The notes below the pieces were generated by a model, which was not told the origin of the DNA, made no database searches, and was given only the letters and a program-made list of their open reading frames with translations. From Ferroacidibacillus organovorans (lineage in GTDB: Bacteria; Bacillota; Bacilli; Alicyclobacillales; SLC66): a stretch of DNA of 41,736 nucleotides. The DNA lies in contig NZ_LSUQ01000022.1 of the NCBI RefSeq assembly GCF_001642725.1, forward strand, positions 1 through 41,736, read 5' to 3'. Position numbers and translations under genes: made by a program. Shown piece after piece: positions 1,869 through 29,073 of this stretch. Position 1 is the first letter of the stretch, and the number at the start of each line of letters is the position of its first letter.

Positions 1869-3392
1869 ATGCGCTGTGCGATCTATGCGCGGGTTTCGAC
1901 CGATCGACAAGGCGAGTCTGTTGACCATCAGGTTTCGCTCCTGCGCGAGTTTGCCAAACGTCGGGGGCAGGACTGGGAGGTTTTGGAGCATCTCGTTTTT
2001 GAGGATGAGGGGGTTTCGGCGACAAAGGTTTCCATTTGGACGAGACCTGCAATGAAGCGACTGATGGAGGCGGCGGAGCGGTCGGAAGTGGATGTTGTCT
2101 TGTTTAAGGGCATCTCACGTCTGGCGCGCAATACGCAAGAGGCGCTCGACGTCCTTGACCGTTTGCGCGCGCGCGGCTTGCGCGTGCTCTCTTACGAGGA
2201 GAGCTACGATTCGGCGAAGGAGAATTCGAACTTCATGTTCACGATGCACGCGGCCATCGCTGAGTATGAGGCAGAGAAGATCGGTGTGCGCGTGCGGCTT
2301 GGCAATAAAGAGAAGGCGAAATCAGGTCGCTGGGTGGGAGGGACACCTCCTGACGGCTACTACGTTGGGCGGGATGGTCATCTGGTGCCTGATGATGCGC
2401 GCGCGGGACTCATCCGTTCGATCTTTGAGCGCTATGCGTTGGATGGGTCATCGTGCGCCGCAATCGCTCGGGAACTGAATGCGCGCGGCGAGACAACGTC
2501 GACCGGGAATGGCTTCTCACAGACAGCGGTTGCGAGAATTCTTGACAACGAGGTGTACGCTGGACACTTGGTTTACAATCGGCGAACGGATCGCACCGTT
2601 CGCGATTACGACAGTGAGGTGCCCGGCAAGAAGAAAGAGCGGCGAATGCCGAATGTGCGGACAGAGTGGGTAGTGGTACACTGCGCTCATCCACCGTTGG
2701 TAACGCCGGATCTTGTGCAAATGGCACAAATGCGCCGCGGCCGTGTGCGCAGCCAAGCGCCGCGCACAACGCATTTGCTGACAGGAGTCCTCTCTTGCGG
2801 GCGCTGCCGCGCACCCTTGATCGCGCAGGTCAAACGCACGGCAAAGCGGGTCTATCGCTATTATGTCTGCCGCACGTACCACCAAGCGGGGAGGCAGGCG
2901 TGCGCGCAAGGAAGTGTCCCTGCGGATGATCTTGAGTCCTATGTGCTGACGCGCTTGTCTGAGCGCTTGCGCGAGGTGAGCATCAACGTGCTTGCACCCG
3001 CTTTGCAAAGCGCGTGCGCGCAAGGGGAGGAGCAGGCGAAACGCGAACGCGAACGCATCAATCGGCAACTCACGCGTCTGACGGACGCTTGGATTGCGGC
3101 GCAAGTCGATGATGTCCTGGCAGGTCAGGCCGCGTCTATTCGGGGGCGCATCGCGCGCCTGACGGCAGAGCGTGACGCGCTTTACAAGCGCCTGACGCAG
3201 GCGGGGTTGCACAGACACAAACGTGCGCAGGAGATCTATGCGCGGCTTGTCGATCTGGCGCAGGATGAACCTGCGATGAAACGATACTGGGTGCAAATGC
3301 TGATCTCGTCGCTCGTCGTGCACGATCGTACCCTCCTGATCCAGTACACGTTTTCTTCATCTGACGACACCCCGATCGATGGGAACGTTTGA
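1869..3392 (+). CDS. Large serine recombinase LSR1
   Basis: YARVST catalytic motif, SRLARN, recombinase domain, CGRC...C zinc ribbon; GGGAGGG RBS before ATG 1869. Its 3' end overlaps the yhbH junction. Confidence 0.95.
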
Positions 3393-3733
3393 GAAATATA
3401 TGGCGCGAACGTTTTTCTTCTGGATGGTGCGCTTTTTGCGTACGCGCTATGAGAAGGTTGACATCCAATTTATCGCTCATCACACGGAAGCGCTCGTCGT
3501 CACAGAGGATGAATTTTTCACAAAGGGTGAGAGCGGAGGCACCATCTGTTCATCCGCGTATCAGACGGCACTCAATCTGATTGATGATCGCTATCCGCCG
3601 TCGCGCTACAACATCTACCCTGTGCACTTTTCTGACGGCGACAACCTCTCTTCTGACAACGAGCGGTGTGTGCGCCTCGTTGACGAACTGATGGGACGGT
3701 GCAACATTTTCGGATACGGTGAGGTCAATCAAT
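3376..3733 (+). CDS. yhbH: Sporulation protein YhbH (DUF444), internal segment of split gene
   Basis: [17 protein letters not shown]...GESGGT.CSS...HFSDGDN...YGEVNQ is typical of YhbH; homology stops at the core repeat. Confidence 0.92.
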
Positions 3734-3775
3734 TGAACGGCGTGCGCTCTCTCCACTCCTCATGGTTGAGATCCC

Positions 3776-5341
3776 CTAAAAGAGCAATTCGACATTGAGG
3801 CGTGGACATTCTCCGCCAGTGTCGTTCAGTGTGCGTGTATATTCAATTCTCCGCACGCTTTTGATCAACAACGCGCGCAGATCATCCCCCTTACACGAGA
3901 GGAAAAGGTGGGATGGCTCGCACCTCGCGCGCGCGTTAAGAGCTGATTTGGCGCGATTTGTTTTGTGGTTCGTTTCGTTTCGCTCTTGCTTTAGCGCCTC
4001 AAGGGATTCATTAGCCTGTCGCAGTTGCTCTGCCACTTCATCGTAGCGCGCTTGAAACTGCGTGCGCGTATACACTCCCTGTTCATACATCTCGCAGATT
4101 CGCTTCAATTGTTCTTCCCGTGCCTGGCGCGTCCGCGCAATGACGTGCGCGAGGGAATCAGAGACAGCAGTGAACTCTGTCTGTTCTGGGTTTGGCGTGA
4201 TCGCTACCCCGCGGAATTGATCCGAGAGCGCACGCTGCACAGCGTGCAGGACGAGTTCATAGCGAGCGCTGCGCGTCGGGCAACCTTTTGTGGCACAGCG
4301 CAGTGCATTGTGCGGACGATTTTTCACAGGTTGTCGAACCATGGCGCGCTTGCATGTTGCGCAAAAGATGAGGCCGGCGAGGGGATGGATCTTTTTTTTA
4401 TTGTTGGCTGAGGCACAGGTTGGCGGGCGCTTGGATTCGTTGTTGACACGCTCCCACGTCGCGCAATCTACGATGGGCTCGTGATTTTCTTCGCGAACGA
4501 TCCACGCATCTGGTTCCATCACAACGCGATGATAGCGGGCACGCTCCATCTCACGCACCTTGTGGCTGCGCACGCGTCCCCACACAAGCGCACCGCGATA
4601 GACTGGGTTCAAAAGGATAAAGCGCACGGTCGAAGGCGACCACAAAGCATTCCCCGATGGACTCGGCAACGCCATGGCGCGCAGGCGTTCCGCGATTGCC
4701 GATGGACCAAGGGAATTGCTTGCGAGCGCGTAGATCCACTTCACGACTGGCGCGGTCTGCGGATCGGGGATTAGCTTCAGTTCGTCTGTGCGCAGATAGC
4801 CGTAGGGAGGTCGCTTGCTGATCGAGCGCCCCGCTTTTACACTCTGTTCGCGGCCGCGCTGCATGCGCCGCGTGATTAACTTCAATTCACGGCGAGCGAG
4901 AAAGGATTCGAATTCCGTCCACTCCTCATCCAACTCATCACGCAGGTCGTAGATCTTGCGCGGCGTCACGATGCGCGTGCCGGAGCGCTTAAACGTCTCT
5001 TGAATCACACCCTGGTCGATCAGGTTTCCGCGTCCGAGACGGTCGAGATCCATACAGAGCACCAGGTCGTAGAGTCCATTGGATACATCGTGCAGCAACT
5101 GTTGCATCTGCGGGCGTTCGAGGATGTGCTCACCTGAGGCGATTTCTTGATACGCGCGTCTAATCTCCACGTCGTGTTGACCGGCGAGTTCGCACAGCGC
5201 GCGATGATGTTTGGCGAGCGTTTCGCCGTCTCCGCGCGCTTCGGCTTCGAGATCAGCGCGCGATTTACGCAGATAGAGCGCGGCGCGTAAACGCGGTGAA
5301 TGGACTTGTGATTCATGCACAGTCGTTTCTTTTATCGTCAC
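3776..5341 (-). CDS. Large serine recombinase LSR2
   Basis: YLRKSR catalytic motif, DLDRLGR, PPYGY, CATC...C zinc ribbon; AAGGAGG RBS before GTG; ends ~40 bp from the left core. Confidence 0.95.
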
Positions 5342-5361
5342 ATGAAGCCCTCCTTAGTGCA

Positions 5362-5389
5362 TTGCGCTTTCTATCCATTAGAGTATAAT
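5362..5389 (+). promoter_or_regulatory. Putative sigmaA promoter of the APC transporter
   Basis: TTGCGC-16 bp-TATAAT. Confidence 0.5.
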
Positions 5390-5450
5390 GAGTCACATTG
5401 AACTCGCAGAAGATCCGTCGATGTAAGAAATGATGGAGGCCTCTTATAAC

Positions 5451-7370
5451 ATGGCGTTGTTTCGTCCATGGCTCGATTCGGCAGTGATTACCCTTTCTGT
5501 CGTAGCCATTCTCTATGCATTCTTAAATTTTAATACATTCAAACGAGTGCTCGTCGGATCGCCCATGCGCACCCGCGAGCTACATTCAAAACATAATCGA
5601 CTCTTTTGGCTGATTGCACTACCGATTCTCGCTGCGGATCTTTACTCTTCAGTCGCGTACGGCCCGGAGGCCGGCATTGCGGAACTGACCGTCAATGCGC
5701 ACCTCGGCGTTGACGCCAAGTGGCTGATTCTCCCTGTCACCGGGGCTACCGTCTTGCTATTGATCATTCTTGTCACCTCGTACATCATGGGAGTCATCGC
5801 GTATCCGAACGGCGGTGGCGCGTATGCAATCTCCAAGGACAACTTCAAACGCCCGATCATCTCGCTCATCGCGGCCAGTTCCCTCTTGATCGATTATGTC
5901 CTGACGGTCGCCGTCTCGGTTACGGCAGGGATTCAGGCGATGGCGTCCGCCTATCCGGCGCTTGTTCCGCATGAAACGATCCTTTCGGTCGCATGCATTC
6001 TGCTAATCCTCGTGGTGAATCTGCGTGGTATCTCAGAGTCGGCGACGATTTTTGCGTGGCCGACGTTCCTTTTTATGTTCGCCATGATTTTCTTGATCGG
6101 AACCGGCTTTGTGCAAGAGTTTCATCACGGCTTTGTTCAGCCCGTGACACCGCCGTTTGGTACGCTTCCTAAAGCGCTCACCTCGCTGCTTTTATTAAAG
6201 TCATTCAGCGCGGCGTGTTCCTCACTGACCGGGATTGAGACGATCTCAAACGCGGTTCCGATTTTTCGCGAGCCGAAAACCAAAGGTGCAATCAAAGCGT
6301 ACATCGCGCTCGGCGTGATAACAGGGGTGACACTTCTTGGGTTCTCTTATCACCTTTATGTGAACGGGATCAACGTCATGCCAAACACGACGATGGAGTC
6401 ACAACTCCTGTCGCTCTACTTCGGCTTTGGCCCGATCTATCAAATTATCATCTGGCTGACGTTTATCGTGCTCATCCTCGCGGCAAACTCGACATTCACC
6501 GGATTTCCGCAATTGGCTGCGCTCGTCGCGGCAGACAGCTTTCTCCCGCGCGCCCTCATGCTGCGCGGAGATCGTCTCGGATACTCCAATGGGATGATCG
6601 TGTTGGCTGCGTTTTCCACCATCCTCGTTGTCGTTTTCAATGCACAGACCGATAATTTGATTCCTCTATACTCGATCGGCGTTTTCGTCGCCTTCTCTGT
6701 GGCACAGATTGGACTCGTGCGCTACTGGCTGCGCGAAAAGAAGGGTCGTTGGAAAACAAAACTGACGATCAACCTGATTGGCTCAATCGTAACCATGCTG
6801 GTGTCTGTCGTTGTCTCCGTGACAAAGTTTACGAGCGGTGCGTGGATCATCTTCATTGTTCTCCCGATTCTCCTGTTTATCGCGCTCGCTGTGCGCCGCC
6901 ACTATACGCAGATCGCGAACGAATTGCGGATTGACATGTCATGCATTCGCCCGGAATCACACCGTGTGATCACGGTCGTGCTGGTGTCTGGCGTCAATCG
7001 CGTCGTGCTTAACGCCCTTTCTTTTGCAAAGAGCATCAACAACGAAGTGATCGCGCTCTATATCGGCTTTGACGATGAATCGATCGAGCGCATCGAAAAG
7101 AAGTGGAATGAATGGGAGTGTCCCTGCCGATTGATCACCGTCAAAAGTGAGTATCGCTCGATTCTCTATCCACTGTCTCGCTTTATTGGGCGGCTGCAGT
7201 CGATGGAAGACGGGAAACCGGATCACGTTCATGTGATGATCGCCCAGTTTGTGCCTAAGAAGTGGTGGCACAACATTCTGCATAACCAGACGTCACTCGT
7301 GATCCGTGCTTGGCTTTTACGGCACCGGGATGTCGTGGTAACGACGATTCCCTATCATTTACACGATTAA
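5451..7370 (+). CDS. APC-family permease, KimA/YdaO-like K+ transporter
   Basis: KRVLVGSP...D.YSSVAYGPE, YPNGGGAY, LLIDYVLTVAVS and C-terminal HNQT...PYHL; about 12 TM segments. Confidence 0.88.
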   Translation: MALFRPWLDSAVITLSVVAILYAFLNFNTFKRVLVGSPMRTRELHSKHNRLFWLIALPILAADLYSSVAYGPEAGIAELTVNAHLGVDAKWLILPVTGATVLLLIILVTSYIMGVIAYPNGGGAYAISKDNFKRPIISLIAASSLLIDYVLTVAVSVTAGIQAMASAYPALVPHETILSVACILLILVVNLRGISESATIFAWPTFLFMFAMIFLIGTGFVQEFHHGFVQPVTPPFGTLPKALTSLLLLKSFSAACSSLTGIETISNAVPIFREPKTKGAIKAYIALGVITGVTLLGFSYHLYVNGINVMPNTTMESQLLSLYFGFGPIYQIIIWLTFIVLILAANSTFTGFPQLAALVAADSFLPRALMLRGDRLGYSNGMIVLAAFSTILVVVFNAQTDNLIPLYSIGVFVAFSVAQIGLVRYWLREKKGRWKTKLTINLIGSIVTMLVSVVVSVTKFTSGAWIIFIVLPILLFIALAVRRHYTQIANELRIDMSCIRPESHRVITVVLVSGVNRVVLNALSFAKSINNEVIALYIGFDDESIERIEKKWNEWECPCRLITVKSEYRSILYPLSRFIGRLQSMEDGKPDHVHVMIAQFVPKKWWHNILHNQTSLVIRAWLLRHRDVVVTTIPYHLHD

Positions 7371-7375
7371 AACAG

Positions 7376-7450
7376 GATAGACGGTAGCATGGCGCTCTCT
7401 CGCCACCGTTTACGGGAAAATAATCGGCTGCGCCGTTATTTTGAGATAGA
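7376..7450 (+). repeat. ~75-bp two-hairpin repeat, copy 1
   Basis: Near-identical to 28265-28340; begins and ends with GATAGA. Confidence 0.85.
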
Positions 7451-7473
7451 GACAAGCGAGCCTCCCATATCGT
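7446..7473 (+). promoter_or_regulatory. Putative sigmaE-type promoter for ORF 7497
   Basis: ATA (7446-7448), 17 bp, then CATATCGT (7466-7473). Confidence 0.4.
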
Positions 7474-7496
7474 TAAGAAGATAGGGAGGTGTTTTT

Positions 7497-7697
7497 ATGC
7501 CGTCTACGACGTACTACCTTGATCACGCGATCGTAACCATTCACGTTCGCTGCGAATGGAACGCAAAATCGTTTGATGGAGTGGTGGAGACTCCAATCTA
7601 TCGCACGTTTTGCGAAGCGGTGCGGCGTGTTGCCAGCAATGGACAGGCAGAGAGCCGGGATGGGTCAATCAATACAACCGCAGCTCCACGCTCATGA
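7497..7697 (+). CDS. Small protein crossing the right att site; candidate directionality factor of element 2
   Basis: Strong AGGGAGGT RBS; ORF reads through the core; on the excised circle it would stop right after the core (59 aa). Confidence 0.6.
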   Translation: MPSTTYYLDHAIVTIHVRCEWNAKSFDGVVETPIYRTFCEAVRRVASNGQAESRDGSINTTAAPRS

Positions 7698-7816
7698 GCG
7701 CGTACCGTAACATTCGCTCGCCTCGCTTTCGCTGTGCGGTCATCAAGGATAAAGCGGAGGTTTACAAAGCGCTACGCACCTTCTTTTCCACTGCAGAAGG
7801 AGGGATCGTACCGTGA
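7663..7816 (+). CDS. yhbH: YhbH C-terminal segment
   Basis: [17 protein letters not shown]...VYKALRTFF matches the YhbH C-terminus; its stop overlaps the spoVR start (GTGA). Confidence 0.9.
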
Positions 7817-7991
7817 CACCAGATGAGATTCGCGAACTTGAGTCGTCGATTGAACGCATGATGGAGCTGGCGCAAGGGTTTGGACTTGACTTCTATGACA
7901 TGCGATTTGAACTGGTACCCGCCGACGTGTTATACACGTTCGGCGCGTACCAAGGCATGCCGACCCGCTTTTCACACTGGTCGTTTGGTAA
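7813..7991 (+). CDS. spoVR: SpoVR segment 1 (N-terminus)
   Basis: GFGLDFY.MRFE...[28 protein letters not shown]. Confidence 0.93.
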
Positions 7992-8018
7992 GACAAAGCA
8001 CCATGTGTATGAAAAAAA

Positions 8019-9437
8019 TTAGACATTCCAGTTGATCTCAAGATCTTGATTGGGACGAAGAAGGATCGTTTTGATGGCGGCCCGTAAAACTGCTTGGCGA
8101 GCGTCAAAATCCAGATCGTCCCAGCTCTGATCGATCAGACGCATAAGATTGAACAGGTCCTCTTTACGTGCGGGCTCGGGCGCTGCCTCCTCCAACGTAT
8201 CACGTTGTAACCATAACGCGCGTTTCTCGGCTTCTAATGCATCGATTCGTTCTTTCAGATGAGATGGCTGAATGAACCCTTCCTCAAAAGCGTCGTACCA
8301 TCGGTTTAATCGATGATCAATCTGGGTTAATTTTTCTTCAATCGCGGATAACACCACGCATGATTGGCGTTGTTCTTCAGTAGAGAGCTCAATTTCTGTG
8401 CGCAGGTCTTCCATGTCAATGGCGGTTGATCTCACCTTAGCGATGATCCAAGCTTCGAGTTTTTCTTGAGGGAAATAGCCTAATTGGCAGTGTTCTTGCC
8501 CTTTTCGATCTCTTTTGCGCACATGTTGATTCTTACAGGCGTAGTATTCGTAGGTATGTGTTTGTCTCTTTGTGCGAACGCGAATGACAGAGCTCCCGCA
8601 TAAGCCGCAACGACACAAACCGGAAAGCAAGTATGCGCCTGTCGATGTCAGACCGTTGCGGCGACGAGCCGTTTCATTTTGAACCATTGTGTATAGATCC
8701 AGAGGGATGATTGCCTCATGCTGACCCTCCACAGGCTCCGAAGGGCCGTTGGGTAACCTCCCGGTATAGATGACCCGGTCGAGGATGGATTTAATTCCGT
8801 TGTGATCGACCTTGATATCAGTACTGCGTGCATTGAGCCAATCAGCCAGTTCGAGTCGCGATTTACCTTGGAGATACATCTGGTTTATTTTACGAATGAG
8901 TTCTGCTTTTTCAGGAACGATCACCAACGTTTGATTCTGTTTATCCCAACGGTAACCAAAAGCGACCCTGCCTCCACTCCATCGACCCTGGCGAATCCTC
9001 ATTCGTCGTCCTGACGTTGTTCGCTCAATGATCATGTCACGCTCCAACTGTGCGAATACCGCAAGGATTCCAATGGTTGCCTTGCCCAAAGGTGTCGCGG
9101 TGTCAAAGGGCTCTGTTGAACTTTTGAAAGCGACATTGTTTTTTTCAAAGACATCCTCGAGGAGATGCAACACATCCTTTTGTCTTCGACTAAGACGGTC
9201 GAGTTTATAAACGACGACAAGATCAATTTTTCCTTCTAGGGTGTGCTTGATAAGTCTGGTCATTGCAGGACGATCAAGCTTCGTGCCCGTATAACCGTCA
9301 TCAATATAAAATCGGTAGTCTTCCCAACCCTGTGAGGCACAGTAGGCAATAAGTCGATCTCGTTGGTGATCGATTGAAAATCCCTGCATCGCTTGTTCTT
9401 CCGTGGAAACGCGGATATAGAGGGCAATCTTAGTCAT
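8019..9437 (-). CDS. Large serine recombinase LSR3
   Basis: [24 protein letters not shown]...C; likely start ATG 9437 with GGGG RBS; ends 27 bp from the left core. Confidence 0.95.
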
Positions 9438-9617
9438 AGCACACCCCATTGACTTTATTGATGTGACTTGATGCCAATGAATGATTGCTTCACCGTTATG
9501 ATATTTACGTTGTTTTGCAAAATGCGGCTCCACAACTCATATTTAAAAACAATCAAGAGGATATACGTATTCAGTTGGAGGTTTATAACCACAAATAACG
9601 ATTCGATAAGCTGGCAA

Positions 9618-9643
9618 ACGGACGTGCCGCTTGAGCATAGCCT
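9618..9643 (+). promoter_or_regulatory. Putative sigmaK-type promoter for the 46-aa ORF
   Basis: AC (9618-9619), 16 bp, then CATAGCCT (9636-9643). Confidence 0.4.
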
Positions 9644-9661
9644 TAATTAGGGGGTGTGCTT

Positions 9662-9802
9662 GTGGAGGAAAAACCGATCAAATTAAATCCGGATGCGGCA
9701 CGGTTGATTTTACGCCTGTGTGTTGAGGCCATACGTAGAGCGAACGCGAAACGGGGAAGAGAACGGGTAGAGGGCGTACAAAATCTTCAAGAGGGCGCTT
9801 AG
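9662..9802 (+). CDS. 46-aa ORF divergent from LSR3 (not in ORF track); candidate directionality factor
   Basis: GTG...TAG encodes MEEKPIKLNPDAARLILRLCVEAIRRANAKRGRERVEGVQNLQEGA; GGGGG RBS 7 nt upstream. Confidence 0.55.
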   Translation: MEEKPIKLNPDAARLILRLCVEAIRRANAKRGRERVEGVQNLQEGA

Positions 9803-9870
9803 CCTTCTTATGTAGGACAGGCCACAGTGAGTATGTATGCACGAGTAAACACCCGATATACGCACTGCAA

Positions 9871-10092
9871 ATCTTCAGCTAAGTGTAACAAAGCATTTCG
9901 AATCCGTTGCCTTGCGTGTGGAGTTAGTTTGTCTATAAATTTTTGTGCGTCTTTGCTCAGGAGTAGATTGTATATTCAGTTTTCCACGAAGATCTCATCA
10001 AAGGGAACGAAGTCGCCATTTCTCATCTCTTGCCGAATCCGTTTATATTCTGCAATCTCTGCGTCTGTCACGGGTTCATCATCCTCGTTCAT
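9871..10092 (-). pseudogene. Remnant RelBE/ParDE-type toxin-antitoxin pair
   Basis: 10092-9976 gives MNEDDEPVTDAEIAEYKRIRQEMRNGDFVPFDEIF (antitoxin C-terminus-like). 9975-9871 gives YNLLLSKDAQKFIDKLTPHARQRIRNALLHLAED (RelE N-terminus-like, truncated, no ATG). Confidence 0.65.
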
Positions 10093-11039
10093 GAATCACT
10101 TGCTTTCTTTGTACGGGAGGCAATTTTCATGATTTCGTTGGCAACAACAACCTCTGTTCCTGCTAAGCCCACAGAGCAGAATAGAGTAATATCGGTTTCT
10201 GTCATTCTTCCGGATGCTTTTCCACATACGATTTCGGACAGTTGCACAATGCGATTTTCACATTTCGTATCCACCAAGAAATGGGGTGTTTTATAAGCGT
10301 GAAGCTGTTCGATCGAGTCCGTCGCGATGATCGTACTCTTAATGCCCAAATCGAGGGGTACCTCATGCCAATTTTTAGTTTTTGGGCCAACCGTATTGAT
10401 GTGTGTTCCTGGTTTGAGCCAGTCGGATTCGAATACAGGAGTGCCACTGTTGGTCGCACAGATGACGATATCGGCATCTTCGATGCAATCTCTTGGGGAA
10501 GTGGCAACTGCGATATTCGCATGGATCTTCTTGCGCATTCCCTCTGCAAATGCTTCTCGGTTTTCTTGCTTGCGGCTATAAACCTTAATACTTTTAATGT
10601 TTCGTACAGCCACGGCTGCCTCCAATTGTGTCCGCGCTTGTAGTCCCGTACCCATCACGGCGATTTTTTTTGCATCGACTCGAGCCATGGCGTTTATTGC
10701 TGCGCCACCGATTGCGCCAGTACGAATGGCACCGATGAGATTGCCGATGACCACTCCCTTAAAAACACCCGTATCCGAGTCAAAGACGCACACGAGCTGT
10801 TGATGACCCTCTGCATCATTTTCGTACGTATCGTAGACACGAAATCCAGTAACCTTTTCGAGTCCAGTTGCGGCTCCTGCCGTAAAAACCAAGTTGCCCT
10901 GTTCCGCTTCCACACGGAAACGTGGCGGTGATACAAGGGTTCCGTTTATTTGCTCCTGAAAGCAACGTTCGATGGCGTTCACGATCCGCTTCATGGAGGC
11001 AAACGATTCAACATCGTGATCCGTAAGAATGGAGTACAT
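10089..11039 (-). CDS. Ornithine cyclodeaminase/mu-crystallin family protein
   Basis: IRTGA.G, GTGLQA, ADIVICAT, HINTVG, F.SVGLA motifs. Confidence 0.9.
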   Translation of the reverse strand: MYSILTDHDVESFASMKRIVNAIERCFQEQINGTLVSPPRFRVEAEQGNLVFTAGAATGLEKVTGFRVYDTYENDAEGHQQLVCVFDSDTGVFKGVVIGNLIGAIRTGAIGGAAINAMARVDAKKIAVMGTGLQARTQLEAAVAVRNIKSIKVYSRKQENREAFAEGMRKKIHANIAVATSPRDCIEDADIVICATNSGTPVFESDWLKPGTHINTVGPKTKNWHEVPLDLGIKSTIIATDSIEQLHAYKTPHFLVDTKCENRIVQLSEIVCGKASGRMTETDITLFCSVGLAGTEVVVANEIMKIASRTKKASDS

Positions 11040-11244
11040 GCAATACACCCCTTCACTGTTCCAATCTGTTACAGTGCGTTTTGTGACGTAAAGGATCTCA
11101 GCGAGTGCCAGGGAACGTCCATCTTCAATTATTTAAAACAAATCGATGCGAATGACAGCATCAAAGGATTCCATTGACCCATGAATAGGACGGTTTAATT
11201 TATTGTGTCTACGTGCTATTGCATAAATCCTCAAGGGATATTAA

Positions 11245-20763: not shown

Positions 20764-23068
20764 AGAGTTTCAACTCCTGACGAAATCGACACAGTGGGGC
20801 GAGCTTAGCGAGATTGAAAAAGTCGTCATCATGGAAAAACGCATAGTATTTGTGCGCTGGCTCGGCATCGTTTGTGCGGCGGTGACTGTTCCCTTTTTGG
20901 GGTATCAGTGGGCTGCTTTTATGTTTGGAATCATCGGATTTGCTGCGGTCTATAATGTGATTTTTCAATTTTATATCATTGCGAAAAAGAGCGCGTGGCT
21001 TTTGAAACCAGCCATTATCACCATCGGGGATATCATGATGGCGTCTGCCGTCGTGTTTATCACGGGGGGGATTCACTCTGACTTTTTTGTGGTCTATTTC
21101 TTGATTGCAATTCTCTCTGCGATTCGTTTCGGGGGACGCGCGGCTGGTATTTCCACCTTGTTGTCGATCCTGTTTTACTCGCTGGTGATTTTCTTGCGCG
21201 GTCCGGTGCGACCGGTCTACGATTTAGCGAACATTTTATTCAGAATGGGATTTGTCGCGACCACAGGTATTTTTGTGGGGTATGTGGGGGACAAAGCGCG
21301 GCAGGTTGAACTCGATTTGCAACGGGAGTTGGATCAGGCGCATGCCCATTTGAATGAGAGCACGGCACTTCTCAATGCAAACCTTGAACTCGATTCGGTA
21401 TTACAAGTGGCCGTCGCGCAATCGCGGTTACTGATTGACGCGGAATTCGGATTGATCCTCACCAAAGAGAGCGGCCTGTCCTTTTTGCCGCGCGACCTTA
21501 AAGATAATTATGACCGTCCCTATTATTCCGATGTGCGTTCAGAAGCCGTGATGCGTGAGGAGGATGTCGCGTACATTATCGAGTTGTTTCAAGATGTCAC
21601 GCGCTTATCGTCGATTTTTCAAAAGCGGATCTCCGGCGAGTCTTCAGTGGAACTCGTGGAGTGCCACATGAATCCTCAATTGGCGCGTATCCTCACGTTA
21701 AAAGAAAACACCATGTATTATCTCGTATCCGCGCAATTGTTTACTGGAGAGACAGAGATTGGGACGCTTTATTTGCTGAAAACGCACAAGCCTGCCCAAG
21801 AGTTGAGGAAAACCGTTCTAAACGCATTGTCCGTCTTTACGCTCAGAATCTCAGCGGCGATCACGAATTCACTGATGTACACCCAATCGAGAATGCAGGC
21901 TGTTACGGATTCAGTGACTGGTCTCTACAATCATCGTTTTTTGCATGAGTTTCTGAATGATGAGATCAAAAAGGTGGTAGAGCAGCATACCCCCTTGTCG
22001 CTGATTGTATTGGATGTGGATTCATTTAAACAGTTTAATGATATGTACGGCCACTCGATCGGCGACACAGCACTGCGCTCTGTCGCGGATATGATCCGGC
22101 CAGCTATTAAAGATCGGGGGATTGCGGCGCGCTTCGGGGGGGATGAGTTTGTCATTATTCTGCCAGGGATGTCCCATCAAGAAGCGATGACTGTTGCGGA
22201 GTCGATTCGTGCGCGCGCGAAAAATTATAGGCACTTAACAAAAAATCACGCACTCGCGACACTTTCGATCAGTTTGGGCGTAGCTACCGCGCCGCAATCG
22301 GGCGAGACATCACACGCTCTTTTCCACGCCGCCGACCTTGCGCTGTACGATGCAAAGCATGCGGGTAAAAATGTTGTGCGATCGGCAGAATCCACGCGTG
22401 AAGGAGGCGCGTTTCGCGATGAACATCTCACAGCGCTTGGCGAATATCGCTCACTGACAGATTCTGTGGAGGTTATGCAGCGGGATCTTGACGCTGTGAA
22501 TCCGCAGATGGTGGAAACGCTCCTCGCGGCGCTCAAGGCGAAAGACCCAGGCACGTACGAACACTCGAAGAGTGTTTCAGCGTATGCTGAGCGACTCGCG
22601 CGGCGCCTTGGCCTGAGTGATCAAGAAGTGGAGACGATTCGGATAGGATCACTCATTCACGATGTTGGCAAGATTGGAATACCAGATTATGTATTGACAA
22701 AAGCCGCGAAACTCACTAAAGAAGAATACGATATGATTAAAGAACATCCGACGATTGGCGTAGAAATTTTAAAACCACTTCGTCTCTATGAAGGATATCT
22801 TCCCATCGTACGCTATCATCATGAATGGATGAATGGAAAAGGGTACCCTCACCAGCTCAAAGGGAGGGAAATTCCGCTTGAGGCGCGCATTGTTGCGATT
22901 TGTGACGCGTTTGATGCGATGACGTCCAACCGACCCTATAAGGCTGCGATGTCTTATGATAAGGCGCTGCATACGATTGAGGGTTTGGTCAATGAACAGT
23001 TCGATCAGGATGTGTGGGAACAGTTCCGCGAAATGATTCAAGAAGAAATCTCTGTGATTGCAAACTGA
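20750..23068 (+). CDS. Membrane sensor with GGDEF and HD-GYP domains
   Basis: N-terminal TM helices, D.VTGLYNHR, RFGGDEF, HDVGKIG, HHE..NGKGYP. Confidence 0.92.
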   Translation: MKKDEEFQLLTKSTQWGELSEIEKVVIMEKRIVFVRWLGIVCAAVTVPFLGYQWAAFMFGIIGFAAVYNVIFQFYIIAKKSAWLLKPAIITIGDIMMASAVVFITGGIHSDFFVVYFLIAILSAIRFGGRAAGISTLLSILFYSLVIFLRGPVRPVYDLANILFRMGFVATTGIFVGYVGDKARQVELDLQRELDQAHAHLNESTALLNANLELDSVLQVAVAQSRLLIDAEFGLILTKESGLSFLPRDLKDNYDRPYYSDVRSEAVMREEDVAYIIELFQDVTRLSSIFQKRISGESSVELVECHMNPQLARILTLKENTMYYLVSAQLFTGETEIGTLYLLKTHKPAQELRKTVLNALSVFTLRISAAITNSLMYTQSRMQAVTDSVTGLYNHRFLHEFLNDEIKKVVEQHTPLSLIVLDVDSFKQFNDMYGHSIGDTALRSVADMIRPAIKDRGIAARFGGDEFVIILPGMSHQEAMTVAESIRARAKNYRHLTKNHALATLSISLGVATAPQSGETSHALFHAADLALYDAKHAGKNVVRSAESTREGGAFRDEHLTALGEYRSLTDSVEVMQRDLDAVNPQMVETLLAALKAKDPGTYEHSKSVSAYAERLARRLGLSDQEVETIRIGSLIHDVGKIGIPDYVLTKAAKLTKEEYDMIKEHPTIGVEILKPLRLYEGYLPIVRYHHEWMNGKGYPHQLKGREIPLEARIVAICDAFDAMTSNRPYKAAMSYDKALHTIEGLVNEQFDQDVWEQFREMIQEEISVIAN

Positions 23069-23071
23069 AGG

Positions 23072-24184
23072 ATGCGAGGATGGCATAATTTGAAACGTAA
23101 AATGGCCAGAGTACAAATGAGCGAAGATGCAATCATGAAAGAGTTGGACTCCTACATGAAATCTGTGATTGAAAGGGGTTTGGACGGGAAAATTCGCAAT
23201 GTGATTGAGTACCATCTCGGGTGGCGTGACATTGATTTTTCTGAACTGGAGTTTGGGAATATCGGCAAGCGCGGCAGACCAATGATGTGTATTTTGACGA
23301 GTATGCTCTTTGCGTATGATTATAAACGTTCTTTTTCAGTGGCTGCGGCAATCGAGTTTATCCATAGTTTTTCGCTGATTTACGATGACATCCAAGATCG
23401 GGACACCATTCGCCGGGGACGTCCCTCCGTTTGGAGTTTATGGGGGGAGGATGAGGCGATTAATGTGGGGTGTGTGCTGCAAACGATGGTTTATGAGGTG
23501 ATTGCAGATCCTGAGAATGAGAATAAACCTGCGCAACTCTCGTGGTTGATTCAATCTGTCAATCGCACGATGTGGAGAGTATGCAATGGACAACAACTCG
23601 ATTTAGAGCTCACCAAAAGTAGGCATCATGTAACGCAGACTCAGTATTTAGAAGTCATCACCGGAAAAACGGCGGCCTTATTTGAGGCGGCAGCTTATCT
23701 CGGCGCGTTTTGTTCAAACGCTAATGAGCGGGAATTGGCACTTTGTCGCTTGTTTGGAGAGAATGTTGGCCTTGCTTTTCAAATTTTTGATGATGTCGTT
23801 GGAATTTGGGGTAGTCGAGAACAAGGACTGGACAAGCCCAACCTCGATCTAGAGCATCGAAAAAAAACGTATCCGATCATCCATGCGCACGAGAATTGTC
23901 AAACGGACGCCGATCGGCTGATCCTCCATCGCTACTATGAGAAGGAAGAACTCAGTGAGCGCGATTTGATCAACATCACGGAACTGCTGAACCGCTGTGA
24001 TTCGCGATCGAAGAGCCTTGAAATCGGATATCAGTATCTCAAAATTGCAATGCAAGCACTTGATGACATAGCAGGGAATGAAGCGATCAAGACGCGTATT
24101 CGCATTTGGGTTAATTACGTTATCGACAAACAGCTTTCTACATTACAAGGTTACATTAAACTTGATGACGAGCTTGTAAAATAA
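23072..24184 (+). CDS. Polyprenyl synthase, likely GGPP synthase
   Basis: GKRGRP, FSLIYDDIQD..RRGRP (aromatic residue at -5 of FARM), GQQLD, KTAALF, FQIFDD; exact start uncertain. Confidence 0.9.
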   Translation: MRGWHNLKRKMARVQMSEDAIMKELDSYMKSVIERGLDGKIRNVIEYHLGWRDIDFSELEFGNIGKRGRPMMCILTSMLFAYDYKRSFSVAAAIEFIHSFSLIYDDIQDRDTIRRGRPSVWSLWGEDEAINVGCVLQTMVYEVIADPENENKPAQLSWLIQSVNRTMWRVCNGQQLDLELTKSRHHVTQTQYLEVITGKTAALFEAAAYLGAFCSNANERELALCRLFGENVGLAFQIFDDVVGIWGSREQGLDKPNLDLEHRKKTYPIIHAHENCQTDADRLILHRYYEKEELSERDLINITELLNRCDSRSKSLEIGYQYLKIAMQALDDIAGNEAIKTRIRIWVNYVIDKQLSTLQGYIKLDDELVK

Positions 24185-24231
24185 AGATGTCGGCATGGAT
24201 CGATTTGTATCGCATAGATTTTTTATAAGTG

Positions 24232-24305
24232 TTGTCATTTTTAAATTGACCGTGCTAGAATAAGCATAACGATTTAGCATAACGATATACTAAATCGTTA
24301 TGCTT
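24232..24305 (+). promoter_or_regulatory. sigmaA promoter and LacI-type operator array
   Basis: TTGTCA-18-TGnTAGAAT; perfect 16-bp inverted repeat at 24262-24277/24290-24305 with a third GCATAACGAT copy between. Confidence 0.75.
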
Positions 24306-24337
24306 GATTTGAACAAAATGATGAATGGAGGGTCGTC

Positions 24338-25627
24338 ATGAAACAAAGAATTGGAAATGTTCGGTGGGGTATTGCTTTTCTCATCGGTGTTGGAATTGTC
24401 ATTAACTATTTTGACCGAACCAATTTGTCCGTGGCTACAAAACCGCTGATGCAAGAGTATCATTTGTCCAGTGCCCAGTTTGGATGGGTACTCTCATCAT
24501 TCGCGTGGTCGTATGCTATCCTTCAAATTCCCGTAGGCGCTTTACTCGATAAGATTGGTGTCAAATGGTTGGTACGGGTAGGGACAATCATCTGGTCGCT
24601 CGCCACATTTATGACCGCGGCAGTCGGTGGAATGGGTCTAATCATTTTATCCCGCGTCTTATTGGGTGTGGCAGAGGCGCCTGCATTTCCAGGAGCGGCG
24701 AAAGCGACGGGATACTGGTTCCCACTTCGTGAGAGAGGTCTCGCGACTTCGGCGTTTGATGCGGCAGCCAAACTTTCAAATGTGATTGGGGTGCCGCTGG
24801 TGGCACTGTCTGTCACACAATGGGGATGGCGCGGCGGCTTTTACATGACAGCTATTTTGAGTCTTATGTATGCGGTTGCATACTGGATTTGGTACCGTGA
24901 CCCGTCGGAGTCCAAAACGCTAACCGATGCAGAACGTGCTTATATTGTAGAAGGCGGGGCTCAAGAGAGCGGAGAAGCACCGGGGGGCGTTGGAAAAAAT
25001 TTAGGATATCTTCTAGGACGTCGTAAGGTGTGGGGATTGACTCTCGGGTTTGCGGCATATGGATATACATTTTATTTGTTGCTTACATGGTTGCCCGGGT
25101 ACCTTGAAACGGAGATGCATATGACCGTTCTAAAATCAGGCATGTACACGATTGTCCCTTGGATCTTTGCGACCATTGCTGATATTGTTATTGGTGGGTG
25201 GTTGGTTGACTTTTTGATAAAGCGCGGAAAAAATCCCACTCGCGTGCGAAAAACGTTGCTTATTGTCGGAATGGTTTTGGGACTCGCGGTCGCTGGGGCA
25301 GGTTTTACGAAAAATCCGCAGATCGCAATCGTCTTCATCACCATTGCACTGAGTGGTCTCGCGTTTTCAGCGCCGATTGGCTGGAGCATTCCTGCGCTCA
25401 TCGCGCCAAAAGGAACGGTTGGTTTAGTGGGAAGCATCATGAACTTTTTTAACAACTTGATGGGGATTTTGGCGCCGATTATCACAGGGTATATTGCAGG
25501 CGGTACAGGCTCATTTGGACTGGGATTTTTAATCGCGGGGATCGTACTGCTGATTGGAATCCTCTGTTACCTCTTTTTACTCGGTGATTTGGAGCCGATC
25601 CAGTCACCTTACAAAGCAAACGTCTAA
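24338..25627 (+). CDS. MFS transporter, anion:cation symporter (sugar-acid) type
   Basis: INYFDRTNLSVA and WFP.RERG motifs; about 12 TM segments. Confidence 0.9.
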   Translation: MKQRIGNVRWGIAFLIGVGIVINYFDRTNLSVATKPLMQEYHLSSAQFGWVLSSFAWSYAILQIPVGALLDKIGVKWLVRVGTIIWSLATFMTAAVGGMGLIILSRVLLGVAEAPAFPGAAKATGYWFPLRERGLATSAFDAAAKLSNVIGVPLVALSVTQWGWRGGFYMTAILSLMYAVAYWIWYRDPSESKTLTDAERAYIVEGGAQESGEAPGGVGKNLGYLLGRRKVWGLTLGFAAYGYTFYLLLTWLPGYLETEMHMTVLKSGMYTIVPWIFATIADIVIGGWLVDFLIKRGKNPTRVRKTLLIVGMVLGLAVAGAGFTKNPQIAIVFITIALSGLAFSAPIGWSIPALIAPKGTVGLVGSIMNFFNNLMGILAPIITGYIAGGTGSFGLGFLIAGIVLLIGILCYLFLLGDLEPIQSPYKANV

Positions 25628-25654
25628 GAAAATGCTGAATGAAAAAATGGGAAT

Positions 25655-25686
25655 ACAAATACGCCGGGGTGTCCCGGCGTATTTGT
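25655..25686. terminator. Intergenic stem-loop
   Basis: Perfect 14-bp stem ACAAATACGCCGGG/CCCGGCGTATTTGT. Confidence 0.6.
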
Positions 25687-25714
25687 GCGAAATAACCTGA
25701 GGTGTAAACGCGAT

Positions 25715-27196
25715 ATGGATGATAAATTTTGTGTTATCGGGTTGGATTTAGGGACAACTTCGGTCAAGACACTCACGGTGGACCAAACGGGTGTGACGCG
25801 GTTTCGAGCAGCGCGGAAAATCTCGACGAACATTGGTCCGAATGGACGCGCAGTGCAAGATCCGTTTGAGATCCGTGACGCGCTGAATTCGGTGTTCGAA
25901 TTGGCGCTTCACGCTGCGAGAAAGGATGGTCTTTTGGTGCATCGGGTTGGATTCAGCGCTGCGATGCACAGTCTGATGATTGTATCTGAAGAGGGGGAAC
26001 CGCTGACACAGGCGATGACCTGGATGGATTCGCGCGCCAAAAAACAGGCGGAATTGCTGTGGGAGTCGCTGAATGGGAAAAAAATTTATGAAGAGACGGG
26101 TACGCCCATTCACGCGATGTCTCCATTTGTAAAGTTAGTATGGCTACGAGAAACGCAACCGCAATTATTGAAAATGGGCAATCGAATCGCTTCTGTAAAA
26201 GAGTGGATCTGGCATGCGTGGTTCGACGAGTGGATGATCGATGAATCGATGGCGGGGGCGACCGGACTCTACGATGTGGAGAAACGCAGTTGGCACGAGC
26301 ATGCGCTCACTCGCATTGGTGTCAACCCGGCACAACTCTCTCGCATCGTTCCTACGTCGTATCGACAGGCTGGTTGTCGTGAGACGAGGCTGCAGTTGGC
26401 AGGGTTGACTGCGGACACTCTGTTTTCGATTGGCAGCACAGATGGAGTTCTTGCGAATTTGGCGCTTGGTGTGACCGATTCGTCAAAAATGGTATTCACG
26501 GTCGGGACAAGTATGGCTGTGCGTTCAGGGGCAAAGAGAAAAGTCACCAATCCTAGCCTTCGTCCATTCTGCTATCGATTAGATGATCAACGTTTTGTCA
26601 TCGGGGCTCCGAGCAATAGCGGAGGTGTGATCCTAGAATGGCTGATGAACATGTTATACGGCGATGATCGCGCGGAAAATGTAGATGAAACGCTGGCCGT
26701 CCTCATTCGTGACGCGGGAAACGTAGAGCTTCAAAGCCTCTACTGCTTGCCTTATGCGGCGGGAGAGCGGGCGCCGCTCTGGGATGAGGAGGCAAAGGCG
26801 TCGTTTATTGGGCTTCATCTTAAACATCAAAAGATTCACTTGGTGAGAGCGGCAATTGAGGGGATGATTTATAACGCCAAGTGGTTGATTGACAACTTGT
26901 CTGCGAGCACGGGGAACCCAGAGCAGGTGTATCTCTCGGGGAAACTGTTTGATGAACTGTGGATATGTCAATTGTGCGCGAATGTATTCGGAGTTCCTGT
27001 TGTGCGGCAAACGCTTGAGGATGCATCAACGATTGGCGCCATTCTTCTTGCAGCCGATACGGCTGAATTCGCACAGTCACTAAAGCGGTGTGAACGGTCT
27101 GAGAAGATGGACCCCGAAGAAGAAATGGAAGAAGTGCAGCGTCTCCGATTTAAAGAGTATCAGAGACTGTGCCGTCTCCTCTATCCAAGCGCGTAG
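25715..27196 (+). CDS. gntK: Gluconokinase (FGGY family)
   Basis: GLDLGTTSVK, FSAAMHS, TGTPIHAMSP, GERAPLW. Confidence 0.85.
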   Translation: MDDKFCVIGLDLGTTSVKTLTVDQTGVTRFRAARKISTNIGPNGRAVQDPFEIRDALNSVFELALHAARKDGLLVHRVGFSAAMHSLMIVSEEGEPLTQAMTWMDSRAKKQAELLWESLNGKKIYEETGTPIHAMSPFVKLVWLRETQPQLLKMGNRIASVKEWIWHAWFDEWMIDESMAGATGLYDVEKRSWHEHALTRIGVNPAQLSRIVPTSYRQAGCRETRLQLAGLTADTLFSIGSTDGVLANLALGVTDSSKMVFTVGTSMAVRSGAKRKVTNPSLRPFCYRLDDQRFVIGAPSNSGGVILEWLMNMLYGDDRAENVDETLAVLIRDAGNVELQSLYCLPYAAGERAPLWDEEAKASFIGLHLKHQKIHLVRAAIEGMIYNAKWLIDNLSASTGNPEQVYLSGKLFDELWICQLCANVFGVPVVRQTLEDASTIGAILLAADTAEFAQSLKRCERSEKMDPEEEMEEVQRLRFKEYQRLCRLLYPSA

Positions 27197-28199
27197 ATTC
27201 GCTTTTGATCAACTCGGACGGAAGGATCTTGAGATGCGCCTCATCGGGTTGTTCATAGCCATCCTTGAATTGCTGAAGGAGGAGGTTTGCGACCCACGCT
27301 CCCATCTCAGGCACCGGCTGTCGAACGCACGTGAGCGAAGGGGAGATCAGTTTGATCCAATCGGGCTCATCGAATGTGGCCAATCCCAGTTTCTCTGGAG
27401 ACGGCCAATCGATTTGCTGTACGTGAGGATAGATTTCATGGAAAATCAACGCATTGGCTGTATAGAGTGCGATCGGTCTTTTCGAAATGTTTTCCTTTAT
27501 ACGCTCAACGACCGATTGCATGGAGACGTCATCCCCGCGTTTCACGATCTCCACGTGAGGAGTGCGATGATAGCGAGATGAACTGTCGAGATAACCCTGC
27601 AGGCGCTCGCTGCGCGTCGAAATGGCATTTGGGGTTTCTGTCACATAAAATACGTTCTGATATCCTTCTGCGTATAAATGGTTCGTCATTTTCATGGATG
27701 CCTCATAATTGTCCGTCAGTACATTTGTGGCGTGCGGGAGCTTGAATTTGCGATCAACGAGAATGACAGGCACTGATTTTGAGATCGTCTCCAGTTCTGT
27801 GAGATTGTCCCCGTTGGTTTGAATCACAATCGCATCGATTTGTTGACCGAGCAGCGTTTTTAGTACATGTGCTTCACGTTTTGGATCTCCCTCTGTTTCA
27901 CAGACGATGACGTTATACCCCTCAGGGGTAAGCGCATTGGAGAGGGAGCGAATGAGGGACACACAAAAAGGATAGCTCAACTTTACGACGATCACTGCAA
28001 TCATTCGACTGCGATTTCCCTTTAATCCTTGTGCGAGTGCATTCGGGTGATAATCCAGTTCTTCAATCACTTGCTCAATTCGCTTTTTTGTCTCTTGGCT
28101 CATCGCCTCATAGCGCGCGTTTAGAAAACGGGAAATGGTCGTGACAGATACGTTTGCTTCGCGGGCAACGTCCTGAATCGTGATTCGTTTCGCTGTCAT
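27150..28199 (-). CDS. LacI-family regulator
   Basis: TIQDVAREANVSVTTISRFLN...LDYHPN; convergent overlap with gntK. Confidence 0.93.
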   Translation of the reverse strand: MTAKRITIQDVAREANVSVTTISRFLNARYEAMSQETKKRIEQVIEELDYHPNALAQGLKGNRSRMIAVIVVKLSYPFCVSLIRSLSNALTPEGYNVIVCETEGDPKREAHVLKTLLGQQIDAIVIQTNGDNLTELETISKSVPVILVDRKFKLPHATNVLTDNYEASMKMTNHLYAEGYQNVFYVTETPNAISTRSERLQGYLDSSSRYHRTPHVEIVKRGDDVSMQSVVERIKENISKRPIALYTANALIFHEIYPHVQQIDWPSPEKLGLATFDEPDWIKLISPSLTCVRQPVPEMGAWVANLLLQQFKDGYEQPDEAHLKILPSELIKSESTRLDRGDGTVSDTL

Positions 28200-28227
28200 T
28201 TTGTACGCTCCCCAAAATCCATTCGAT

Positions 28228-28255
28228 GTATGTTCATCAAAGTATGTTCATCAAA
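28228..28255 (+). repeat. Tandem 14-bp duplication GTATGTTCATCAAA x2
   Basis: Exact tandem copy upstream of the LacI gene. Confidence 0.8.
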
Positions 28256-28264
28256 TATGACGAA

Positions 28265-28340
28265 GATAGACGGTAACATGGCGCTCCCGCGCCACCGTCT
28301 ACGGGAAAAATAAATCGCTGCGCCGTTATTTCGAGATAGA
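28265..28340 (+). repeat. ~76-bp two-hairpin repeat, copy 2
   Basis: Near-identical to 7376-7450. Confidence 0.85.
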
Positions 28341-28434
28341 CGTGCCTATTCTCGTGTTGCGCTATCTGATTTTACCACGAAGTGAATTTGAATCAGAAGA
28401 AAATCGGATCGATCGCAAAAAAGCATCTTTACGA

Positions 28435-29073
28435 AACGAAGGCTGGGCGACGTATTGGCACTTAAGGATCATGAGGGAACTCGAACTGACAGACGGTGAG
28501 TCACTCGATTTTGCGCGTACACACTCGGGAGTAGTTCTTCCCTCAAAAACATCGGTGAATCCTTACTTGATTGGACTGAAGATTTGGGAAGACATCGAGA
28601 AGCGCTATGATCATCCGACAGAGGAGATGAAAAAACGATTCGGCGCTCGCGCTGGTCAAGGACGCGAAAAAATGTTTGAAGTTAGGGAGATGGAATCAGA
28701 CACCTCCTTTATTCGAAACTATCTGACGGAGGAACTGGTCAGGGAACTCGATCTCTATCTCTATCAAAAGGTCGGAAATGAGTGGCGAATTGTTGAGACA
28801 GACTGGGAAAAGGTTCGCGACAAGATTTGGAAATCGAGGACAAACGGCGGATATCCGCTTCTTCATGTGGTAGACGGTGACTATCAACTCACGGGAGAAC
28901 TGTATTTGGTACACGCGTACGAAGGGAATGAGTTGGACGTGAAGTACACCGAAAAAACGCTGCCATCCGTCTATAAGCTGTGGGGGCGAACGGTTCACGT
29001 AGAGAGCGTCCTGGAAGGAAGAGCGGTCGTCTTTTCGTATGACGGACGAAAAACGACAAGAAAGTTTCTCTGA
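28435..29073 (+). CDS. spoVR: SpoVR segment 3 (C-terminus)
   Basis: NEGWATYWH.RI.REL...NPY..GLKI.EDIE...ESDTSFIRNYLT...NGGYP...LWGRTV. Confidence 0.95.
   Translation, partial: NEGWATYWHLRIMRELELTDGESLDFARTHSGVVLPSKTSVNPYLIGLKIWEDIEKRYDHPTEEMKKRFGARAGQGREKMFEVREMESDTSFIRNYLTEELVRELDLYLYQKVGNEWRIVETDWEKVRDKIWKSRTNGGYPLLHVVDGDYQLTGELYLVHAYEGNELDVKYTEKTLPSVYKLWGRTVHVESVLEGRAVVFSYDGRKTTRKFL

Follow-up and report, generated by a model that had tools for sequence, protein, structure and literature searches.

In the draft genome of Ferroacidibacillus organovorans examined here, the adjacent sporulation genes yhbH and spoVR are broken at four places within contig NZ_LSUQ01000022.1 (C22; the window, 41,736 nucleotides, to which all coordinates without a contig prefix refer), with one large serine recombinase (LSR) in each gap. 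Their upstream neighbor prkA, which lies outside the window on contigs C43 and C91, is likewise interrupted, and together six LSR elements with a summed length of approximately 49.7 kb (roughly 18.7 + 7.25 + 3.94 + 6.99 + 12.83 kb) divide the 4.6-kb prkA-yhbH-spoVR cluster into nine pieces. Five codon-precise attachment sites are involved; prkA, yhbH, and spoVR hold two elements each, and one of the prkA elements is nested. Each of the six interrupts the coding sequence of a sporulation gene and brings its own site-specific recombinase, the anatomy by which intervening elements are recognized. An earlier, sequence-only reading of the window had proposed that four excisions rebuild the operon; that count stands for yhbH and spoVR, but the unit proved to be prkA-yhbH-spoVR, with six elements, one of them nested.

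Layout of the cluster and reconstruction of its reading frames

The genome (G000; 98 contigs, 3.03 Mb, 96.8% complete) holds the cluster on three contigs, ordered C43, C91, and C22 by colinearity with G001, a genome of the same genus in which the region lies on a single 202-kb contig. In comparison with G001, the gaps between contigs amount to approximately 58 bp (C43/C91) and 15 to 30 bp (C91/C22), and a CbiX gene spans the latter break, its first 51 residues standing at the end of C91 and the remainder opening C22. The pieces of the three genes are as follows.

C43:3918-4796, prkA 5' part
C91:1549-2580, prkA 3' part, directly upstream of yhbH
C91:2664 to ~3322, yhbH 5' part
3378-3733, plus strand, yhbH middle fragment, residues ~220-338 of 385, NCBIfam TIGR02877 positions 215-330
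7663-7816, plus strand, yhbH 3' fragment, stop codon TGA overlapping the spoVR start
7813-7991, plus strand, spoVR 5' fragment, GTG start, residues 1 to ~60
14974-15620, plus strand, spoVR middle fragment, residues ~58-273
28435-29073, plus strand, spoVR 3' fragment, residues ~269-480, including SpoVR_C

The pieces are recognized as the NCBIfam equivalog "sporulation protein YhbH" and as members of the SpoVR and PrkA families, each scoring below the full-length cutoff, as expected for partial sequences. In Pfam, DUF444/YhbH is matched at 3379-3798 (profile positions 257-380 of 418) and SpoVR at 7825-8004 (3-62), 14995-15819 (63-270 of 407), and 28342-29073 (260-405, together with SpoVR_C). The yhbH TGA and the spoVR GTG overlap at 7813-7816, the intact GTGA coupling to which the sequence-only reading had drawn attention. 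The elements that separate the pieces, and the attachment sites (attL and attR) that bound them, are listed below.

E0b, outer prkA element, ~14.9 kb, LSR at C43:11181-13190, common to G001
E0a, nested prkA element, 3,785 bp, LSR at C43:6919-8559 and a GH18 gene
E1, yhbH site 1, ~7.25 kb, C91:3323-7180 plus window 1-3377
E2, yhbH site 2, 3734-7673, 3,940 bp, LSR2 and a 646-residue amino-acid-permease-family gene (5430-7370)
E3, spoVR site 3, 7992-14981, 6,990 bp, precisely absent from G001
E4, spoVR site 4, 15621-28448, 12,828 bp

C43:4786-4805 and C43:8571-8590, 20-bp direct repeat bounding E0a, CCGCCGATGAAGTGGTGGTT
3374-3377, attR of E1, short common core GATC, partner GGATCC at C91:3318-3323
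3723-3733, attL core of E2, GGTCAATCAAT, 11 bp
7663-7673, attR core of E2, GGTCAATCAAT, 11 bp, spacing 3,940 bp
7984-7991, attL core of E3, TTTGGTAA, 8 bp
14974-14981, attR core of E3, TTTGGTAA, 8 bp, spacing 6,990 bp
15607-15620, attL core of E4, AACGAAGGCTGGGC, 14 bp
28435-28448, attR core of E4, AACGAAGGCTGGGC, 14 bp, spacing 12,828 bp

The E1 junction has only the short shared core GATC. E0a sits within the left attachment site of E0b, 9 to 10 bp from the outer crossover region, and the same site is uninterrupted in G001.

Joining of the pieces in silico by these coordinates yields a SpoVR of 480 residues and a YhbH of 385 residues (the latter including the 5' piece from C91), both free of internal stops, and a PrkA of 636 residues that is likewise free of stops. 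The spliced YhbH is 78% identical to L019 and the spliced SpoVR is 72% identical to L007, both aligned end to end with no gap at any junction, and the spliced PrkA is 86% identical to the intact gene of G004, with 0 gaps over 636 residues. Four junctions of yhbH and spoVR fall inside the most conserved motifs of the proteins (MDTSGS|MG, GEVNQ|YN, HWSFGK|AY, and NEGWA|TYWH), and the prkA junction falls at ISADE|MVIAHT; the joined sequences predicted from recombination between the attachment sites agree with the empty sites of relatives. Much of the sequence-only reading is thereby borne out: its fragment coordinates, repeat cores, and spacings were exact, each gap holds a single intact LSR (Pfam finds four full LSRs in the window), the reading frame is restored at the junctions in a scripted splice, and the alignment to intact homologues that it had proposed is gap free at each of them.

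A draft assembly in which the cluster extends across three of 98 contigs might be suspected of artefact, with chimeric contigs at this locus or with elements that in reality lie elsewhere in the genome. Independent metagenome contigs, labeled as mine drainage and sediment, nevertheless bridge attL2, attR2, and attL3 in the integrated form: X5 record 9 covers 3674-11527, and X6 record 17 covers 3300-8973 and extends a further 5.2 kb upstream. G001 is colinear through three of the four window elements and shows the same order on its 202-kb contig, and the same junctions occur in many genomes. We regard misassembly, which the sequence-only reading had itself named as a threat to its proposal, as exceedingly improbable. 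The other such threat, an intact copy of yhbH or spoVR elsewhere, did not materialize, as PF04285, PF04293, and PF06798 match nothing beyond the fragments in this 96.8%-complete genome. No second prkA was found either, the one extra match of PF08298, on C40, being weak (25.9 bits, profile positions 57-111 of 358). The loose end of an X5 contig at 15620 was considered as an excised form and was rejected, as the contig continues as spoVR of a different sequence and belongs to another organism. Contig depth in X6 is lower over E3, and a 19-nt contig end in X7 reads like empty site 2; these are at most hints of strain polymorphism.

Selection on the split genes and site occupancy in relatives

Comparison with G001 gave ratios of nonsynonymous to synonymous substitution rates (dN/dS) of 0.014 to 0.052 in 8/8 fragments tested, over dS values of 0.53 to 1.41, and of 0.018 to 0.052 in the six yhbH and spoVR fragments alone. 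Four of the six elements (E0b, E1, E2, and E4) are common to the two genomes; their LSRs have dN/dS values of 0.10 to 0.22 (dS, 0.37 to 1.09), and identity to G001 is 80 to 92% in element DNA and 83 to 85% in flanking host DNA. The simplest reading of these sequence comparisons is that the elements were already present in the common ancestor, were vertically co-inherited, and have co-diverged with the host, and that strong purifying selection has acted on the genes while they were split. Because such selection persisted throughout, the genes would be reassembled into working form, and we hold it to be very probable that excision rebuilds them in at least some cells.

It could be argued instead that the three genes are dead in this lineage and that the fragments are pseudogene remnants left by successive insertions, as the existence of nine pieces with no intact copy might suggest, together with the presence in a related metagenome-assembled genome (MAG), G006 (C106, L044, and L057), of a 1-nt frameshift in spoVR beside empty site 3. 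The fragments, however, contain zero stops or frameshifts and show the low dN/dS values given above, the LSRs are intact and under purifying selection in their own right, and the junction motifs are perfectly conserved. The selection estimates, drawn from sequence, already contradict the decay of these genes, which we consider very unlikely, and the earlier statement that the fragments are not decaying is upheld by the same low ratios and by the lack of stops.

Relatives were surveyed with hidden Markov model (HMM) searches of 41 genomes, covering G000 and 40 relatives that belong to two families within a single order, and junctions were read in 18 genomes that were picked as seemingly split or as intact references and are not a random sample. 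The same break points recur across the genomes searched, and every site read was either occupied or precisely empty and in frame, so that the empty sites for which the sequence-only reading had suggested a search were found. Site 1 was occupied in 7/18 genomes, site 2 in 11/18, site 3 in 4/18, and site 4 in 6/16 (two more lay at contig ends). Of the 41 genomes, 5 have a split prkA site (G000, G001, G006, G030, and G032), and the state of two more is ambiguous, with pieces at the ends of contigs; the prkA element of G006 is minimal, at 2.9 kb with little beyond its LSR. All four yhbH and spoVR sites are occupied in G010, which belongs to another genus, and three are occupied in each of G001 and G002; the arrangement is therefore not peculiar to one genome. 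Site 3 of G022, from the second family, is occupied by an element of approximately 135 kb (C1:533137-533325 and 668437-669474, loci L143 and L144), the left end of which encodes a recombinase resembling LSR3 (47% identity).

A wider comparison of the 80 nearest YhbH loci, drawn from contigs representing one genome per species, found 6 interrupted at site 1 or 2 and 74 that read through. The interrupted loci came from five MAGs labeled Bacillota or Bacilli and from Sulfoacidibacillus thermotolerans Y002 (L068), which indicates that interruption is concentrated in the acidophilic lineage and its neighbors; the loci that read through were mostly from Lysinibacillus, Ureibacillus, Oceanobacillus, and similar genera, and they include at least one false read-through (L071).

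Such polymorphic occupancy, including the lack of E3 in G001, is also what would be expected of integrative islands of the ordinary kind, for which conserved codons in dispensable, late-acting genes are safe landing sites and whose excision is sporadic or stress induced, function being supplied by some cells or by empty-site strains. The metabolic, non-phage-like cargo, the ~135-kb element of G022 (which implies that the sites serve diverse elements), the lack of a recognizable sporulation promoter motif in a scan with B. subtilis-type consensus patterns, and, weakly, the X7 contig end that resembles empty site 2 all fit this alternative. Against it stand the low dN/dS of 0.014 to 0.052 over dS values of approximately 0.5 to 1.4 in a pair that shares four elements, which points to selection while the genes were split, and the consideration that sporadic excision in the germ line would lose elements, yet co-divergence with the host is seen. 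Moreover, the published cases with such an anatomy that have been tested are all sporulation timed (PMC4191935, PMC5595907, and PMC6957869). We therefore view ordinary islands as a possible but rather doubtful explanation and favor regulated excision during sporulation.

Recombinases and the proposed excision during sporulation

The four recombinases of the window and a small open reading frame (ORF) beside the last of them are given below.

1821-3392, plus strand, LSR1 (yhbH site 1), likely start 1869, Pfam match, 82% identical to the site-1 LSR of G001
3776-5341, minus strand, LSR2 (yhbH site 2), 3' end 43 bp from attL
8019-9533, minus strand, LSR3 (spoVR site 3), homologues aligning from residue ~35
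16789-18309, plus strand, LSR4 (spoVR site 4), Pfam match
16322-16549, minus strand, 76-amino-acid ORF, divergent from LSR4

Pfam Resolvase, Recombinase, and Zn_ribbon_recom all exceed their cutoffs in LSR1 to LSR4 and in LSR0b; LSR0a matches Resolvase and Recombinase only. The N-terminal catalytic serine motif of LSRs, Y-x-R-x-S, is present at all six N termini (YARVS, YLRKS, YIRVS, YCRVS, YLRKS, and YLRRS). The last four codons and the stop of LSR1 (3378-3392) are yhbH sequence, beyond the E1/yhbH junction, and in an excised E1 circle the protein would acquire a tail of approximately 10 other residues instead. In a quick maximum-likelihood tree of 44 LSRs, including 11 other LSRs of G000, one change suffices for each of the six site groups, with Shimodaira-Hasegawa-like approximate likelihood ratio support of 99 for sites 2, 3, and 4, 100 for prkA-b, 92 for prkA-a, and just 18 for site 1. 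The prkA-a and prkA-b lineages group together as sisters (99). The LSR at each occupied site was in every case closest to the G000 LSR of the same site, and the four window recombinases, which the earlier reading had called independent, belong to four unrelated lineages.

The 76-amino-acid ORF has a counterpart of 70 to 76 residues in the same place beside 6/6 site-4 LSRs examined, with 25 to 95% identity, and matches no Pfam-type, NCBIfam, or PHROG family; we suggest it as a candidate recombination directionality factor (RDF) for E4. For sites 0 to 3, a tblastx search of the regions upstream of the LSRs found no small ORF conserved beyond the same-genus pair.

We consider it probable that these are intervening elements of the skin and vrin type, whose regulated excision, linked to sporulation, rebuilds the three genes. 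The elements would remain integrated during growth and in the germ line of the spore, leaving the three genes silent and in pieces. During sporulation, each LSR, probably together with an RDF, would recombine its own attL with its own attR, releasing the element in circular form and restoring the frame. From the sequences, we infer excision itself as well as its timing, cell type, and trigger factor, and the departure of the nested prkA element ahead of the outer one. The most likely setting would be the terminally differentiating mother cell, where loss is not inherited, because prkA, yhbH, and spoVR act there in Bacillus subtilis. prkA and spoVR are both mother-cell expressed in that organism. 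yhbH has a place in the B. subtilis mother-cell program (PMC517825). Consistent with a sporulating host, the genome encodes SpoIVA and an intact sigK (C81:3192-3854, 339 bits).

Several considerations weigh against this interpretation. The same-genus dN/dS values come from one pair, G000 and G001, and in the second genus (G016, G012, and G004) dS is saturated, so that only low dN can be reported. A scan for sigmaE and sigmaK promoters of the B. subtilis consensus type, run on the regions preceding prkA, each of the six LSRs, and the small ORF, found none; it returned one isolated -10-like match, in the LSR1 region and 341 nt from the end of that region. A directionality-factor candidate is available for one of the six elements only. 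Neither an excised junction nor a circle was seen among the assembled contigs, which are unable to show rare excised forms, and all long metagenome contigs are in the integrated form. E1 carries the genome's only ATP sulfurylase (C91:4670-5296; a single PF01747 match), which looks more like a property of a fixed than of a mobile island. With six separate excisions, any inefficiency would be compounded. In B. subtilis, sporulation is only reduced when prkA, yhbH, or spoVR is lost, so that selection for efficient excision may be modest.

A more elaborate proposal is that the six excisions form an ordered cascade, with the nested prkA element leaving first, that gates the PrkA-YhbH-SpoVR module, which would function only once all six have taken place, and that the elements are domesticated carriers of growth-phase genes, the sole ATP sulfurylase gene among them, kept in the germ line and discarded from the mother cell. 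Because E0a lies in the attL arm of E0b and within 9 to 10 bp of the outer crossover, it would have to leave before E0b; the full cascade, however, we regard as unlikely. If true, it would constitute a multi-input recombinase AND-gate with a built-in order, conserved across a family.

Known intervening elements, cargo, and further recombinase loci

Intervening elements of sporulation genes comprise skin in sigK, SPbeta in spsM, vfbin in spoVFB, vrin in spoVR, and gin in gerE, and the model described in the corresponding papers is that they are integrated in growing cells and in the spore and are excised in the mother cell by a recombinase and an RDF (PMC4191935, PMC6957869, PMC5595907, and PMC10747680). 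A close precedent is vrin, an element inside spoVR of Geobacillus thermoglucosidasius C56-YS93 that is reported to be excised during sporulation (Abe et al. 2013, as cited in PMC4191935 and PMC6957869). In the present cluster, by contrast, two spoVR sites are occupied by elements with two unrelated LSR lineages, the neighboring genes are split too, and none of the cargo is recognized by PHROGs as phage related, whereas vrin is described as having phage-related genes (PMC4191935). With skin (SpoIVCA; B. subtilis and Clostridioides difficile) and SPbeta (SprA/SprB), our elements share the placement of an LSR element in a mother-cell gene and, by prediction, the repair of the reading frame through precise excision. 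Direction and timing are governed by an RDF in skin and SPbeta, whereas we have a candidate for one element only, and there a single prophage or its remnants occupies each gene, whereas here there are six elements with metabolic cargo in three adjacent genes. The gin element of gerE in Bacillus cereus ATCC 10987 resembles ours in being a nonprophage element with a serine recombinase, and it also has an RDF, but it is small and alone in the one gene that it interrupts, with another target and another LSR lineage (PMC5595907).

The sequence-only reading had likened the arrangement to the multi-element nif rearrangements of heterocysts, where elements in nifD, fdxN (with the LSR XisF), and hupL are described (PMC4874684) and nifBHDK of Calothrix NIES-4101 lies in 13 parts (PMC11249958). 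There, too, function depends on the prior removal of several elements from one gene cluster, in a cell that is terminally differentiated. The phylum, cell type, and genes differ, and no LSR of our cluster reaches the 375-bit cutoff of the XisF NCBIfam equivalog, all six scoring weakly (best, 181.5 for LSR4). The same reading had thought such an arrangement undescribed in Bacillota; this has to be narrowed for spoVR, which is an already published target (vrin; PMC4191935), and within the literature searched it holds for yhbH, for prkA, and for the multiplicity of elements. Neither yhbH or prkA as targets nor several elements in one Bacillota sporulation operon, nor a nested insertion in that phylum, were found in the full-text literature searched, a scope that excluded the 2013 vrin paper and subscription literature, and "yhbH" occurs 0 times in the four intervening-element papers (PMC4191935, PMC6957869, PMC5595907, and PMC10747680). 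New are the target genes yhbH and prkA, the nested insertion in an attachment site, and conservation across a family; the element multiplicity is also the highest in Bacillota of which we are aware.

The textbook programmed rearrangement involves one element and one sporulation gene, whereas here six excisions, by six distinct site-specific recombinase lineages, would serve one module of three adjacent genes, and the arrangement recurs across a family of acidophilic spore-formers. It could provide a natural test of the reliability and order of several recombinases acting in one cell and a genetic handle on the poorly understood PrkA-YhbH-SpoVR module, and the six seemingly orthogonal LSR/att pairs, together with one candidate RDF, may be of interest for genome engineering.

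The cargo of the elements is metabolic rather than phage derived. No phage structural, lysis, or replication family was matched by the 19 cargo ORFs tested against PHROGs, and the matches obtained were generic only (acetyltransferase, GGDEF, MFS, kinases, and LacI). Relative to the genome, at 52.0% GC, E3 is lower (47.2%) and E0a is higher (56.5%).

E1, window: CbiX (2-586) and a formamidase-family gene (587-1525)
E1, C91: PAPS reductase, ATP sulfurylase, and sulfite reductase
E3: LSR3, an ornithine cyclodeaminase-family gene, a truncated APH-like fragment, GNAT, and a pseudouridine glycosidase/kinase pair
E4, first part: a DinB-family gene, a small ORF, LSR4, a terpene synthase, a cyclase-like gene, and a GGDEF-HD protein
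E4, second part: a polyprenyl synthase, an MFS transporter, an FGGY kinase, and a LacI regulator

Genes of sulfate assimilation thus ride on an element, E1, that is predicted to be excised. The APH-family phosphotransferase ORF of E3 (11245-11736) covers profile positions 158-230 of 239 only and is probably a remnant. Positions 7375-7451 of E2 are a short dispersed repeat, and several X1, X5, and X6 contigs match there only, with unrelated sequence on both sides. Within E4, 574 bp (16047-16620) are 98% identical to G001, compared with ~80% for the rest of the element; the stretch takes in the 5' end of the DinB gene, the 76-amino-acid ORF, and the region upstream of LSR4, and it could reflect recent exchange or strong constraint. 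The 221 bp immediately before it (15826-16046) are absent both from G001 and from an X7 contig, in which 15825 is joined to 16047.

Serine recombinases are numerous elsewhere in the genome, with 18 PF07508 matches, of which the four on C22 are the window LSRs. Tandem runs of three occur on C41 and on C15, the latter beside a tyrosine integrase, and four closely related PF07508 copies lie on C46, C56, C69, and C72. The Rfam scan of the window returned 0 matches. On C17, a sigK-like sigma gene is broken into 34688-35026 (TIGR02846 positions 9-122) and 41242-41592 (110-226), with 6.2 kb of intervening DNA in which an LSR and genes of sugar ABC transporters lie. The possibility that sigK is interrupted here in the manner of skin was considered and rejected, since sigK itself is intact on C81 and the C17 gene is a paralogue. 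On C59 (L055:3300-3551), an 84-amino-acid ORF that matches the first 47 of 163 Thioredox_DsbH positions lies near LSR remnants with stops and may be another interrupted gene.

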